Source of the DNA: a phage
DNA: 64,000 nt
Sequence record: PZ386965.1
Direction: 5' to 3' (one strand)
Below are positions 3,009-41,819 of this stretch, piece by piece (position 1 is the stretch's first letter; the number at the start of each line of letters is the position of its first letter). The notes under the pieces were generated by a model that was not told where the DNA came from, searched no databases, and saw only the letters and a list, made by a program, of their open reading frames with translations. The translations under genes were made by a program, and so were the position numbers.

Positions 3009-4024
3009 TGTGTTGCCTCAATATAAAGTTCGTTGGAATATTTGACCAGCGCTTCTCTGTCTTCGTCTGAGATATCTGGAATAGCGTCAATATATTCTTT
3101 AATGATATCTTGAAGTGATTTAATCTCGATTTCCTGGTCATCATCAGATTCAACACTGTTATCAACTTTAGAAACCATACGAAGAGAGTGAACTACTTTT
3201 TCAAGTTCAGATTCAAACTTAGTCAACTCTGAATCAATTTCTGATACTATAACACGTACGGCTAGATTAGTATAATCAGAATAATTGATTTTGCCTTTAA
3301 ATGGATAAGTGATTCGTCGATGCCATGTTGTTTCATTAGGAATAAATTCCATACGTTCAACATCAGTGTCAAATACCCAGAATCCACGTGGGTCGTTCTC
3401 GTCACCTGCAGTAAGGGTCCATGGTGTCCCAATATATTTGACGTTAGCAGCTTCAGAGATTGTGTGGAAGTGGCCGGACCAGACTTGTTTATAGGTCTTT
3501 AAGAAATCAGGTTCAAGCCCATGGGACTTCATTCCTTTATAGAAATAAAAGCCGTTCAGTTCCCAGTGACCAACACAATACGCAGCAGAAGAAGTCTTGA
3601 TGTGCTCTAAGATTTCACCTGTATTTTCTTCACACATCCATGGAACGATATCAATCAGACATCCGTCAAAATCTACAGTAGTTGGATGCTCGTAAATAGT
3701 AAAGTTTTCAAATTGAGTTAACAATTCAGAAACAGTGTTAGGTGTTATTGTATTCTTAAACGCCATGTCATGGTTTCCTATCGTGACATGAACGTGAATG
3801 CCTGCTTTAGAAATCATATCAACGATTTCACGATTGAATTCCATTGTACGATGTGTTATTGCTTTACGGACGTCAAACCAATCACCGTACTGAATCCAAG
3901 TTTTAATCCCGTGTTTCTTAGAGTATTCAATTGCTTGTCGAATACCATCACGTTGAATATCTTGAACCCATGGGTCGTCTTGTTTGACTCCGATATGGAA
4001 GTCGCCTAAGTGCAAAATTTTCAT
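3005..4024 (-). CDS. 47: recombination nuclease subunit gp47 (Mre11/SbcD-like phosphoesterase)
   Basis: 339 aa; GDxHxG and GNHD phosphoesterase motifs; matches recalled T4 gp47; GAGGA SD. Confidence 0.93.
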   Translation of the reverse strand: MKILHLGDFHIGVKQDDPWVQDIQRDGIRQAIEYSKKHGIKTWIQYGDWFDVRKAITHRTMEFNREIVDMISKAGIHVHVTIGNHDMAFKNTITPNTVSELLTQFENFTIYEHPTTVDFDGCLIDIVPWMCEENTGEILEHIKTSSAAYCVGHWELNGFYFYKGMKSHGLEPDFLKTYKQVWSGHFHTISEAANVKYIGTPWTLTAGDENDPRGFWVFDTDVERMEFIPNETTWHRRITYPFKGKINYSDYTNLAVRVIVSEIDSELTKFESELEKVVHSLRMVSKVDNSVESDDDQEIEIKSLQDIIKEYIDAIPDISDEDREALVKYSNELYIEATQ

Positions 4025-24210: not shown

Positions 24211-24428
24211 GTCACCTTTAAGCAGTATTCTTCTACATGCTGTTTACGACCTTTCTTATCAATAAAGGTATATTCAACGAATGTTCCAATGTAGTCTTTA
24301 TCTACGTCATGTGGACTATTAATTGGACATTTAGTACGACAAATGCGTTCCCATTGACGAATAATTACTGCTTTATTTTTAGGATCAAACGGATGTGGGT
24401 AATGCACATTCATAATAATGGTTCCCAA
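24201..24428 (-). CDS. hypothetical protein
   Basis: 75-aa ORF. Confidence 0.4.
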   Translation of the reverse strand: MGTIIMNVHYPHPFDPKNKAVIIRQWERICRTKCPINSPHDVDKDYIGTFVEYTFIDKKGRKQHVEEYCLKVTWL

Positions 24429-24877
24429 TCAACAATCACAATTTCTAGTTTAGTGGAATATGTATCAAGAATTTCTTCAATGATATCCCAGTTTCCACCA
24501 CCTATACCTGCACCAATTCTTGGCATATAAATTACAGGCTTTGTTATCTTATTTTTTCCGAATTCATTTAATTCTATTATACAATTCATTAAAGCATAGT
24601 ACTCAAAATTAGGTCCCGGCTCAAACTGTGTATAAAGATTAAAGCAATAAGCTTTATGGGTCTTAAAATATTTTTCATAAACCGAATAAGTCCCGAGTTT
24701 AGACTCATCTCCGAATTCGGTTTGAAGTTTATCGGCTTCTAAAATTTTTGGATAAGCCTTTGCCAATTGACCTGCTACACCGGCGCCCATTGTATGAAAA
24801 CAATTGCACCCATGAGCAATATTATTACCTTTAGAAAACAGGGCGATATTGTCGCCCTTGATATAGTTTTTAATCAC
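24410..24877 (-). CDS. macrodomain-like protein (putative ADP-ribose binding/hydrolase)
   Basis: 155 aa; N-terminal GxNxxHGCNC..MGAGVAG and C-terminal RIGAGIGGGNW glycine-rich motifs resemble macrodomain diphosphate-binding loops. Confidence 0.5.
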   Translation of the reverse strand: MIKNYIKGDNIALFSKGNNIAHGCNCFHTMGAGVAGQLAKAYPKILEADKLQTEFGDESKLGTYSVYEKYFKTHKAYCFNLYTQFEPGPNFEYYALMNCIIELNEFGKNKITKPVIYMPRIGAGIGGGNWDIIEEILDTYSTKLEIVIVDWEPLL

Positions 24878-25764: not shown

Positions 25765-26223
25765 CTAGATTTTAATCACTGCTTTAGAAGCTTTTCCTGG
25801 TAGTCGTTTATTGTTAATAATAGCCATTCTGCATTGAAGAGTCTTCATTTTGAATGCTGGATTTTCGCGACAAACTGTAAGTCCTAACCAAAGATTTCCA
25901 TCAGTTATTTCTAAACGGCCTGGGCGATATTCGACACCTTCGACAAAATCTTCATCAACATCTGGACGTGCCGGCATTGATAAAAATTCTGCAACTTCTT
26001 TAACATGATTTTTTACTTTACGAAATAATTCAAAAACGTAATTCTCATCTATTTCTCTCTGGATGGCACGATCTAAGAGATGTTGAGAATACTTGATATG
26101 AAAGCCCGGTAGTCCAAGAGACTTTGCAGCATCTTTTATACTGGCATTTATTTTGCGGAACTCCGTTTCAAAGATTCGACGGAGTTTATTGCGGCGGATA
26201 AAAACGTCTGAATTGATAGTCAT
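25765..26223 (-). CDS. regB: endoribonuclease RegB
   Basis: 152 aa; MTINSDVFIRRNKLRR...YSQHLLDRAIQREIDE matches recalled T4 RegB; GGAGA SD. Confidence 0.9.
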   Translation of the reverse strand: MTINSDVFIRRNKLRRIFETEFRKINASIKDAAKSLGLPGFHIKYSQHLLDRAIQREIDENYVFELFRKVKNHVKEVAEFLSMPARPDVDEDFVEGVEYRPGRLEITDGNLWLGLTVCRENPAFKMKTLQCRMAIINNKRLPGKASKAVIKI

Positions 26224-26251
26224 TTTGATTTCTCCTCTAGTTGACAGGTCT

Positions 26252-26280
26252 ATAGTAACACAACTAGAGGAGAAGTAAAC
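26252..26280 (-). promoter_or_regulatory. sigma70-type early promoter with 12-bp inverted repeat
   Basis: Minus strand GTTTAC-N16-TACTAT; CTCCTCTAGTTG/CAACTAGAGGAG inverted repeat flanks the -10. Confidence 0.5.
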
Positions 26281-26579
26281 TACTCTTTGAAAGGAATTAA
26301 CTTTTTAACTGCTTTAGATACTTCGTCACGAACCTGGTGGAAGTTCTTGAGCTGTTCAAGGCGTTGTTCGTAATACGCAATCTCATCTTCTTCAAGACAA
26401 TCGTCAGCGTCTTCTTTCAGATATGCCTTGTACTCATTAAAGAGGGCCCATAGGCGATTCTCAAAGTCATCAAGGCTTTGAATTTTCTTGTGCTTCGGAA
26501 CAAGGCCAAAAGGATTGCTTTCAGTTATGCGTCGAGATGCTTCATAATGAGTTCCAAAGCCTGATAGGATTTGAGCCAT
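26280..26579 (-). CDS. hypothetical protein (vs.3-like position)
   Basis: Trimmed to ATG (MAQILSGF); 99 aa. Confidence 0.45.
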
Positions 26580-26824
26580 TAGTATTTTTCCTCTGGTTGA
26601 AATACCGCACGACAAGCCCACATACTAGCTTCCTTTAGGCGTTCTTTAGCACAGTTCAATTGGGACAAAGCCGTCAGAGCTTCAGGAGTATTTGCTGATA
26701 ATGCTTCTTCTGCCAGGGCGTCTAGAATAAGTCCTAAACGAACTTCGGCATCTTTAATAGCGTTCACTTTACCGATTTTATCATCGGTATGCGGCTTGTA
26801 GCCTTTGATGTCTTCAATCGACAT
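26579..26824 (-). CDS. hypothetical helical protein (vs.4-like position)
   Basis: Trimmed to ATG ([12 protein letters not shown]) with GAGGAA SD; 81 aa. Confidence 0.45.
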
Positions 26825-27038
26825 AAGGAATTTCCTCATCTGTGGCAAGGTCATATTCGACCAATTGGATAGGCTCATTAATACCATATCCACGTACAGT
26901 GATATCAGTTGTCGGATAGTTTCCAGTAATATCACCCATTCTAAATGCTTCAATGAATGATTGCTCGCCTGAGCAACTAAACCAGGCGGCAAAACATTTT
27001 AAAACATCTTCAGACCCTTCTATAATCAATTTAGTCAT
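26814..27038 (-). CDS. hypothetical acidic protein
   Basis: 74-aa ORF; start overlaps upstream stop. Confidence 0.45.
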   Translation of the reverse strand: MTKLIIEGSEDVLKCFAAWFSCSGEQSFIEAFRMGDITGNYPTTDITVRGYGINEPIQLVEYDLATDEEIPYVD

Positions 27039-28251: not shown

Positions 28252-28423
28252 ATTATTTCTCTTAAGGTTTGGGCCATTCCGTGGCACATGTTAGGTCCTT
28301 CGACTCGCTATGTAAACCCATTACCGCATTGCGCTCGACCTTATTACAGGTTGGAAAAGGTACATCACTCAGAGGACTCGACGTTCATGAGGAGAGGTTG
28401 CGTTTCCCTTTATTAGGCAAGAA

Positions 28424-28753
28424 TTATACTCTAGGCTTTTGAGCTTGTTTGGTATTGGATTCCCATGCGGCTTTGGTAATTTTGTTAGCGGCATAACCAA
28501 AGGCATTAGATAGAACACCTTTAGAGTTGAATACATCCAATCCAATAAGTACACCGGCTGCGTTAAATTTAGGAGCAAAGTACGCATTAGTTTTAGAAAG
28601 AGCTTTTTTCAATTCAGGGTCTTGAACCAAGCCATCAAAAACGCCTTTACTATTTACTTTATATGTTACTTTGGGATTCTTACCTTCTTCGATAGCAGCT
28701 TTCTGTTCCGCAGATAATGTAACTTCAGTGATAAACTCCTGATATGTTTTCAT
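28424..28753 (-). CDS. internal protein (capsid-targeting sequence MKTYQEFITE)
   Basis: 109 aa; N-terminal MKTYQEFI..E leader typical of T4 IPI/IPII/IPIII precursors processed by the gp21 prohead protease. Confidence 0.6.
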   Translation of the reverse strand: MKTYQEFITEVTLSAEQKAAIEEGKNPKVTYKVNSKGVFDGLVQDPELKKALSKTNAYFAPKFNAAGVLIGLDVFNSKGVLSNAFGYAANKITKAAWESNTKQAQKPRV

Positions 28754-28778: not shown

Positions 28779-29093
28779 TTATTCTTTAGGGAAGTTTTTA
28801 GAGTATGCATCATAAAGTTTATTACCAATACGACGGAAGACTTTAGCTGCAAAACGGTTTTCAGGGTTTTTAATCATGATTTGCATCATGTAAGTTCCTG
28901 CATCCGAAAGAGCTTCTTCATAGTACCCATTAATTTCTTTAAGAGTCCTACGTTTACCACCAGGACCGTCAACAGTAATTTTCCATTTACCTGTAGAAGT
29001 GCGGCTCGGTGGCTCAACTTGTTCAATCCAAATATAACCACCTTCAACGCGTTGGTTGGCGGATTCTGCAATAAATTCTTTATACGTTTTCAT
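28779..29093 (-). CDS. internal protein (capsid-targeting sequence MKTYKEFIAE)
   Basis: 104 aa; CTS leader; own early promoter at 29125-29154. Confidence 0.6.
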   Translation of the reverse strand: MKTYKEFIAESANQRVEGGYIWIEQVEPPSRTSTGKWKITVDGPGGKRRTLKEINGYYEEALSDAGTYMMQIMIKNPENRFAAKVFRRIGNKLYDAYSKNFPKE

Positions 29094-29425: not shown

Positions 29426-29839
29426 TTAGTAAATTGATTTACCATAGTATTTGTACCAAGACGGCCGTTGAGCAATTTTTTCATCTAAGCGTGCTTGACT
29501 TATCGCAATGGACGCTTCGGACGGGACGTAATTATTACGAAATTCTACAGGAATGTCGGAAATATCCTGGACAGTCGTGTCCTTGATTTTGAAACCACGT
29601 TTCAAGCATTCAGCGATTAGCTCGATTTGACGTAAACGTAAAAATTCGAGTTTGTCGTAAAAGAATGTTACGTGACCTGTGCCTAAGATAAATGTTGGAG
29701 AGATTTTAAAATCCTTTACACGTTTACCGTTTTGAACATGTTTACGGACTGCACCAAATACGCGTGGTAATTCACGATACTCGGCCATAAGATGTTGGTC
29801 GGCCAGTTCAGAAACAAGTGTTAAATTGATACGGGTCAT
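29426..29839 (-). CDS. denV: endonuclease V (pyrimidine-dimer DNA glycosylase) DenV
   Basis: 137 aa from [29 protein letters not shown]; matches recalled T4 DenV. Confidence 0.95.
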
Positions 29840-40768: not shown

Positions 40769-41056
40769 TTACAGAAGAGTTTTTGCAATAATTTTAAGTT
40801 GAGCTACAGAAATATGCTTAGCTTTAAACAGTGCGGTCTCTTCAGCCGGAGAGATAACAATAGTAGCGCCATCTTTCTTAGCAGACCATCCATCCCCTAA
40901 GTAAACAGTACCTTTTACTTCTTCGCCGTCAACCAGACTAATCATTGGTTTACCCTCACGGCCTTTGTTTGCTTTAATAACTTCGGAAGTAAGGGTTGCT
41001 TCGGTCAGAGTAGAAACGTTAGCAACAGGTGATATAAATTCTTTATAGGTTTTCAT
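40769..41056 (-). CDS. internal protein I-like (capsid-targeting sequence MKTYKEFI)
   Basis: 95 aa; CTS leader; position between tRNA region and 57B matches T4 ipI. Confidence 0.6.
   Translation of the reverse strand: MKTYKEFISPVANVSTLTEATLTSEVIKANKGREGKPMISLVDGEEVKGTVYLGDGWSAKKDGATIVISPAEETALFKAKHISVAQLKIIAKTLL

Positions 41057-41133: not shown

Positions 41134-41819
<686 letters not shown>

Follow-up and report, generated by a model that had tools for sequence, protein, structure and literature searches.

The window, a stretch of 64,000 nucleotides of phage DNA (sequence record PZ386965.1) to which all coordinates refer, comes from an E. coli Mosigvirus (Straboviridae, T-even group). The 1.8-kb stretch around the three small open reading frames (ORFs) considered here shares 99.3% identity with Escherichia phage vB_EcoM-pEK20 and 97–99% with many other E. 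coli Mosigvirus phages. Every gene between 24.4 and 28.3 kb occupies the minus strand, in the T4-like order tk.4-vs-vs.1-regB-vs.3-vs.4-vs.5-vs.6-vs.7-vs.8, and a tblastn comparison of T4 proteins with the window shows strict colinearity for tk.4, vs, vs.1, regB, vs.3, vs.4, vs.6, vs.7 and vs.8. The regB gene at 25765..26223 (minus strand) is recognized by Pfam REGB_T4 at 1.9e-69. The three ORFs lie at 26280..26579, 26579..26824 and 26814..27038, all on the minus strand, exactly where a preliminary description of this DNA had drawn them. The same description placed them after regB, which is correct in coordinates only; in the direction of transcription the three ORFs lie upstream of regB.

We read this interval, with a probability of about 0.9, as three translationally coupled early Mosigvirus genes on the minus strand, transcribed towards regB, that would encode an Acb2 sponge, the vs.5 product and a long-form TadIV-1.

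Gene integrity and a candidate early promoter

Each of the three ORFs begins at a plausible ATG that matches the N-termini of homologues (MAQ... and M(S)IEDIKGY...), and GAGGA-type ribosome-binding sites are found upstream of vs.4 and of vs.3. The genes are tightly packed, with TAATG stop/start overlaps at the vs.6/vs.5 and vs.4/vs.3 junctions and an overlap of 11 nt between vs.5 and vs.4. Homologues of the vs.4 ORF are present in 1233 phage records and those of the vs.5 ORF in 989, and the codons that differ in the N-terminal block of vs.4 are largely synonymous (8 synonymous versus 3 non-synonymous in comparison with ATK47; 10 versus 2 with JS09). Given the widespread homologues of vs.4 and vs.5 and the synonymous excess in the N-terminal block of vs.4, we judge the three ORFs to be real genes and not chance ORFs. 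Longer versions of 113 aa (from a GTG at 26621) and 137 aa (from a TTG at 26992) were rejected because the homologues start at the internal ATGs; the N-terminal extension of the 137-aa version moreover overlaps vs.5.

A consensus scan found a sigma-70-like promoter match (TTTACA-17-TAACAT) at 28288..28316 on the minus strand; the ATG of vs.8 (28251) follows approximately 37 nt downstream. Between this match and vs.4, the only other promoter-like sites on the minus strand lie inside vs.8/vs.7. In T4, the 'promoter of vs.8' has been used to drive Vs.3-Vs.8 (PMC13243611). The scan returned 10 sites compared with 6.9 +/- 2.6 in shuffled sequence, a number not above expectation; it is by its position and the T4 literature that the match at 28288..28316 is likely to be the early promoter for the vs.8-vs.3 unit.

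The Vs.4/Acb2 orthologue and its predicted ligand

From synteny with T4 (regB-vs.3-vs.4-vs.5-vs.6), the preliminary description had expected one of the three ORFs to be the counterpart of vs.4, or Acb2, and had named beforehand a BLASTP comparison with T4 Vs.4 as the test by which this expectation could be refuted. The middle ORF, at 26579..26824 (minus strand; 81 aa), aligns with T4 Vs.4 over 87 positions, 60 of them identical (69%, E 6e-39), and the expectation is upheld. In a search of the whole PDB, the only significant match of this protein was 7UQ2, 'Vs.4' (E 7.8e-30). It scores 65.5 bits against Pfam PF24729 Acb2_Tad1_hairpin (curated cutoff 27; 4.9e-18) and matches PHROG 717, a set of Vs.4 homologues according to Jenson et al. 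2023 (PMC10097602), at 1.6e-25. A profile constructed from 50 homologues reaches PaMx33 Acb2 (p26, 8IXZ/8H2J) with an E value of 5.5e-4, and this alignment brings Y11 and K26 of the PaMx33 protein into register with Y9 and K24 of the window protein. On these matches we assign 26579..26824 as the Vs.4/Acb2 orthologue of the phage. That another of the three ORFs might instead be the Acb2 counterpart is a reading that we exclude: nothing beyond position in the interval speaks for it, neither flanking ORF matches PF24729 or 7UQ2, and the two align instead to T4 Vs.3 (26280..26579) and to the T4 vs.5 region (26814..27038). The synteny on which the preliminary description relied is thereby borne out on both sides of vs.4.

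Structure prediction, which had been proposed as a check on the helical fold, agrees with this assignment. The AF2 single-chain model of the 81-aa protein is a two-helix hairpin (helices 14–44 and 47–74; mean pLDDT 87), so that the protein has the small (~80–95 aa) two-helix hairpin form of the Acb2 family. When the model was compared with the PDB using Foldseek, the best matches were chains of 7UQ2 (E 2e-7, TM 0.74), followed by PaMx33 8H2X/8H2J, with a probability of 0.99–1.0 against PaMx33 Acb2. Confidence in the monomer is low at both termini, the parts that make up the ligand pocket (block pLDDT 59 and 63). Such low terminal values are expected of an Acb2 monomer, since the pocket forms only in the oligomer.

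The residues on which the T4 protein depends are conserved almost without exception. In T4 Vs.4, Y8 and F82 stack cGAMP, and Y8, H11, K23 and R79 contact it through hydrogen bonds or salt bridges; loss of function has also been observed at S74 (S74N disturbs the cGAMP contacts), at the helix cap T12 and at the interface residue A77 (PMC10097602). A global alignment equates T4 Y8, F82, H11, K23, R79, S74 and T12 with window Y9, F75, H12, K24, R72, S67 and T13, all identical. The T4 hexamer requires L29, A66, A73 and A77, and is destabilized by F33A, F33 being a milder interface residue (PMC10097602). At the sequence level, L29, A66, A73 and A77 are identical to window L30, A59, A66 and A70, and of the T4 positions tested only F33 differs, its counterpart being L34. 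Among 121 cluster representatives of the homologues, 43 have Leu in this column, and none departs from Y9, H12, K24, A59, S67, R72 or F75. The dinucleotide pocket is hence complete in its residues, as is the hexamer interface save for L34 in place of F33. The comparisons establish, for the window Acb2, its homology and fold, the conservation of its residues, its synteny and the integrity of its gene.

PaMx33 Acb2 possesses a second pocket (R67, T74 and a kinked helix) that binds cA3/cAAG at nanomolar affinity. In these trinucleotide-pocket columns, PaMx33 R67/T74 correspond to T4 D61/T68 and to window S54/E61, so that the window protein carries neither of the two residues of a PaMx33-type dual-pocket Acb2. 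An Arg at the R67-equivalent column is found in none of the 121 T-even-type homologues, and T4 Acb2 does not bind cA3, even as D61R. Because the trinucleotide-pocket residues are absent, we predict that the window Acb2 is a dinucleotide-only sponge, like that of T4, and would bind neither cA3 nor cAAG.

Compared with T4 Vs.4 (7UQ2), the window protein thus shares the slot between vs.3 and vs.5, the two-helix hairpin, the cGAMP contacts and the hexamer interface (F33 = L34 excepted), with near-identical N-terminal (1–34) and C-terminal (59–81) blocks. Neither protein carries both trinucleotide residues, although T4 keeps the Thr (T68) where the window has E61, the clade consensus. The two differ further in length (88 aa in T4, 81 aa in the window) and in the hairpin tip, which comprises 31 and 24 residues, respectively, of unrelated sequence. 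PaMx33 Acb2 (8H2J/8H2X/8IXZ; Huiting et al. 2023; Cao et al., PMC10312549) has the Pfam family, the fold and the Y11/K26 = Y9/K24 correspondence in common with the window protein, but is only ~19% identical to it and is set apart by its second pocket.

The structures and biochemistry of the T4 and PaMx33 proteins allow the oligomeric state, ligand binding and anti-defence phenotype of the window Acb2 to be predicted by analogy. The 81-aa chain would fold into a two-helix hairpin, and six hairpins would interlock via the conserved L30/A59/A66/A70 interface. Between each pair of protomers, a pocket would then form for a cyclic dinucleotide of the 3',3'-cGAMP type: Y9 and F75 would stack against its bases, and H12, K24, S67 and R72 would bind its phosphates and riboses. 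The hexamer would hold three dinucleotides without degrading them and so bring the free signal below the threshold of the CBASS effectors; these effectors would stay inactive, and the phage would in consequence escape abortive infection.

The gap that such a sponge would leave for cyclic trinucleotides would be covered by the nuclease Acb1. The preliminary description had expected Acb1 to accompany Acb2 in this phage, and we concur: 57B, at 41134..41589 (minus strand), scores 196.8 bits against PF23474 Acb1 (cutoff 27; 1.8e-58), spanning model positions 1–144 of 144, and is flanked by ipI (PF11634) and 57A (PF17594), the arrangement known from T4. T4 likewise encodes both factors, and the window phage has a T4-like pair of sponge and nuclease. 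Acb1 degrades signals, being a 2H-type phosphodiesterase, and has neither sequence nor mechanism in common with the Acb2 sponge.

The flanking genes vs.3 and vs.5

The ORF at 26280..26579 (minus strand; 99 aa; PHROG 2037) is 59% identical to T4 Vs.3 (E 1e-37). It also matches PDB entry 9WIW over its full length (residues 1–99; E 1.6e-35), with 67 of 97 positions identical. This entry is the UPEC07 homologue (U07) of T4 Vs.3, which has been renamed TadIV-1 (Chen et al., Nat Commun 2026, PMC13243611). The type IV Thoeris TIR-Caspase system signals through N7-cADPR, which dimeric TadIV-1 sequesters with a KD of ~216 nM, and T4 without vs.3 is sensitized to this system (PMC13243611). The interval in which an anti-CBASS sponge was sought thus holds a second gene whose family is itself a characterized anti-defence sponge.

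Homologues of TadIV-1 come in two lengths: the long proteins, of >80 aa, are active, and the short ones, of ~70 aa, are inactive and lack the flexible N-terminal loop that forms the pocket (PMC13243611). At 99 aa, the window protein belongs with the long ones, and residues 1–34 of U07 are matched by its first 32. Residues implicated in N7-cADPR binding by U07 are R18, R19, S21, S23, N24, K34 and E58, together with a basic patch of K57, K60 and H83; the ligand-bound structure of the family is a model only (PMC13243611). U07 R18, R19, S23, N24, K34, K57, E58 and H83 are retained as window R16, R17, S21, N22, K32, K55, E56 and H81. The departures are U07 S21 (T19 in the window, a conservative change), K60 (A58) and S16, which faces a gap. 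The window vs.3 product thus shows the homology, the long form and the N7-cADPR-binding residues of TadIV-1, K60 not being kept. Like T4 Vs.3 and UPEC07 TadIV-1, it adjoins regB and combines the long form with the RR...SN...KK motif and with E56, K55 and H81; it differs from U07 in having A58 and T19 where that protein has K60 and S21. We assign 26280..26579 as the Vs.3/TadIV-1 orthologue, in the active-type long form. Its product would be a dimer that sequesters N7-cADPR with the help of a flexible N-terminal loop and would thereby block the type IV Thoeris TIR-Caspase system.

An 'endoribonuclease' label has been attached to this family in the 9WIW deposit, and the pEK20 gene is annotated as 'endoribonuclease RegB domain-containing protein'. 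We reject this label, given that the window protein does not match REGB_T4 and that the paper accompanying 9WIW describes a sponge (PMC13243611). Since the vs.3 ORF has no RegB domain, the pEK20 name is an annotation error.

The vs.5 ORF (26814..27038, minus strand; 74 aa) matches PHROG 1986 at 1.1e-38 and has no match in Pfam, PADLOC, NCBIfam or the PDB; searches of the three proteins against PADLOC and NCBIfam returned only a sub-threshold TagK match (16 bits, cutoff 200). By BLASTP, only its first 18 residues align with the annotated T4 Vs.5 (58 aa). Residues 14–72, however, find their tblastn match in a different frame of this T4 DNA, at 68% identity and ending at the start of vs.4, and the 72–74-aa form is full-length in 984 phage records. 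This alignment across two frames indicates that the T4 reference annotation is frameshifted relative to the 72–74-aa form. We therefore set aside non-orthology as an explanation of the weak BLASTP match to T4 Vs.5, since the frame difference in the T4 reference accounts for it. The close relatives of vs.5 form six protein clusters, and AF2 run on this shallow alignment gave a model too poor to use, with a pLDDT of 51.7. A literature search on vs.5 and vs.6 returned nothing. The gene is intact, and an anti-defence role read from its place among sponge genes is a guess only.

The assignments provide a firm annotation for genes that are called 'hypothetical protein' in public records and that in one case bear the erroneous endoribonuclease name. 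They outline an early anti-signalling set in this Mosigvirus, in which the predicted cyclic-dinucleotide sponge Acb2 and the predicted N7-cADPR sponge, long TadIV-1, would act with the Acb1 nuclease encoded 14 kb away. Knowing this set helps to predict host range where bacteria carry CBASS, type IV Thoeris or Panoptes-type guards, for example in the choice of therapeutic phages. Guards of the Panoptes type are triggered once their decoy, 2',3'-c-di-AMP, has been drawn down by Acb2, and the predicted sponge activity of Acb2 should expose the phage to systems of this kind.

Allelic mosaicism at the sponge genes

The Acb2 assignment is known biology, its family being already represented in Pfam and PHROGs, and no concept is changed by it. 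What our analysis adds is an assignment for all three ORFs, recognition of the long form of TadIV-1 and the allelic mosaicism of both sponge genes; the only lead beyond the literature consulted lies in the acb2 tip cassette and in the long/short dimorphism of tadIV-1 among near-identical phages. In JS09, which is this species' type phage, the vs.3 position encodes a 71-aa short form. As this form is of the inactive type, the vs.3 locus is dimorphic within Mosigvirus.

In vs.4, the variation is concentrated in codons 35–58 (26651..26722, minus strand), a middle block of variable sequence and length that encodes the hairpin tip. Over the 121 cluster representatives, mean pairwise identity is 0.32 in the tip, compared with 0.84 in the N block (1–34) and 0.87 in the C block (59–81). 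The tip ranges from 24 to 41 residues and has at least 31 in 117 of the 121 homologues; with 24 residues, the window allele falls in the shortest class (3 of 121). Comparison with ATK47 reveals how local the change is. The two phages differ at 0 of 300 nt in vs.3, 1 of 225 in vs.5, 4 of 363 in vs.6 and 3 of 459 in regB. Within vs.4, a patch from ~26811 to 26634 is dense in mostly synonymous changes, and the middle of the gene is wholly different and unalignable (72 nt in the window versus 93 nt in ATK47). JS09 has a vs.4 of the ATK47 type, but a different vs.3. The window-type cassette is confined to 31 phage records, all of them E. coli Mosigvirus-like phages; blastn searches outside Mosigvirus found no donor of the short-tip cassette, and other genera matched the conserved flanks only. 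The pattern in vs.4 is what a short recombination tract leaves behind, and such a tract appears to have replaced the tip cassette. That the tip is a hypervariable, recombining cassette, with the window allele in its shortest class, is only a mildly new point.

Variation of this kind may mean that an exposed tip is under little constraint, or that selection tunes ligand binding or favours evasion of recognition. In its strongest form, the selective reading would make the tip an exchangeable module under diversifying selection, swapped as a patch of ~180 bp between phages with identical flanking genes; its alleles, the shortest one of the window among them, could tune a second ligand pocket on the three-fold axis or evade host factors that recognize Acb2. 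In a related proposal, vs.5, which is conserved and co-transcribed, would be a third anti-defence factor. We hold this combined proposal to be unlikely.

The same cassette bears on how the Acb2 assignment is to be understood. Some members of the Acb2 family bind 3'cADPR and not cGAMP, and family membership alone therefore does not fix the ligand. The middle ORF might then encode an Acb2-family protein with a shifted or widened ligand spectrum, accepting, for example, 3'cADPR, or another signal via a second pocket shaped by the tip. Among 46 Acb2 homologues tested, 10 bind 3'cADPR and inhibit type I Thoeris, and the family tree records several switches of ligand specificity; in addition, it is beside the three-fold pocket position (S54) that the hypervariable cassette is swapped by recombination. 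Yet every residue by which T4 Vs.4 contacts cGAMP is identical in the window and invariant across the T-even clade, whereas the 3'cADPR-binding Acb2_43 relies on other N-terminal residues (L6/V7 on a beta strand). The missing Arg at the R67-equivalent column throughout the T-even clade, and the failure of T4 D61R to gain cA3 binding, argue in the same direction. We consider a shift in ligand very improbable, and a dinucleotide sponge of the T4 type remains our reading of the middle ORF.

The short tip could also be taken for a defect, the 81-aa allele being a weakened or inactive deletion derivative that is kept because active Acb2 triggers guards such as Panoptes. T4 acb2 loss-of-function mutants do escape Panoptes, the window tip is in the shortest length class described above, and the neighbouring tadIV-1 offers a comparable dimorphism of active long and inactive short forms among close relatives, with the 71-aa form of JS09 as its example. 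The ORF, however, is intact, its ligand and interface residue sets are complete, and its N-terminal block differs from those of other alleles mainly by synonymous changes. The shortened hairpin, moreover, is modelled at a pLDDT of 96–98 through the tip, and the short-tip allele persists in the 31 phages that carry it, which were isolated independently. A weakened allele thus seems to us extremely improbable, and we favour an active Acb2 with a short tip. In T4, escape from Panoptes arose via frameshifts, stops and pocket mutations (F82C), not via changes in the tip.

Length forms and labels of tadIV-1/vs.3

Among close Mosigvirus relatives, tadIV-1/vs.3 is dimorphic: the window (26280..26579), pEK20 and ATK47 carry a long form of 99 aa, and JS09 (L003 1767..1982) carries a short form of 71 aa. 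The JS09 version is of the short type that, according to PMC13243611, shows no activity against type IV Thoeris.

The names attached to this protein are misleading, both in GenBank (pEK20 MZ868638, CDS 3581..3880, 'endoribonuclease Regb domain-containing protein') and in the PDB, where the molecule in 9WIW is called 'Endoribonuclease'. The protein itself lacks a RegB-family match.

The regB leader and the vs.5 frame

Between vs.3 and regB lies a 14-bp hairpin (26231..26275, minus strand), with an RNA minimum free energy of -23.2 kcal/mol over a 71-nt stretch (z = -3.5). One arm lies in the spacer of an early promoter of the T4 type (GTTTAC-17-TACTAT here, GTTTAC-17-TATAAT in T4), and it pairs with the regB Shine-Dalgarno sequence GAGGAG. 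We compared this leader with those of T4 (L002:4730-4812), JS09 (L003:1970-2056) and a further record (L005:1965-2050); in T4 the pairing is retained, although the arm sequences differ (CCTCTTGACTG / CAGTTAAGAGG). Because the promoter spacer itself pairs with the Shine-Dalgarno sequence, the regB ribosome-binding site would be masked in read-through transcripts arriving from upstream, but left unmasked in transcripts that start at the regB promoter.

Comparison of vs.5 in the window (26814..27038) with T4 (NC_000866, 5344..5558) indicates that the annotated 58-aa T4 gene looks frameshifted, as judged from sequence. Other T-even phages have a conserved Vs.5 of 72-74 aa. In the annotated T4 frame this protein aligns only to residues 1-18 of T4, whereas its residues 14-72 match T4 in another frame, with 68% identity, up to the start of vs.4.

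Further candidate anti-defence genes

The acb1 gene is flanked, as in T4, by ipI (40769..41056, minus; Pfam IPI_T4, 1.3e-50), which encodes the injected nuclease inhibitor, and 57A (41589..41819, minus; GP57, 5.9e-23); the acb1 region therefore carries additional anti-defence cargo. In T4 denV directly follows vs.8, whereas in the window two small minus-strand ORFs (28424..28753 and 28779..29093) lie between vs.8 and denV (29429..29839). Their N-termini, MKTYQEFI and MKTYKEFI, share a motif with ipI, which suggests that both are internal-protein-like genes.

Four genes downstream of the vs.4/Acb2 and vs.3/TadIV-1 sponges is the Tk.4 orthologue (24410..24877, minus; 83% identical to T4). It is a stand-alone Macro-domain protein by its Pfam match (Macro, 2.3e-06), and its PHROG is labelled 'phosphatase'. 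Since Macro domains act on ADP-ribose derivatives, a link between Tk.4 and ADP-ribose-based immune signalling is conceivable.
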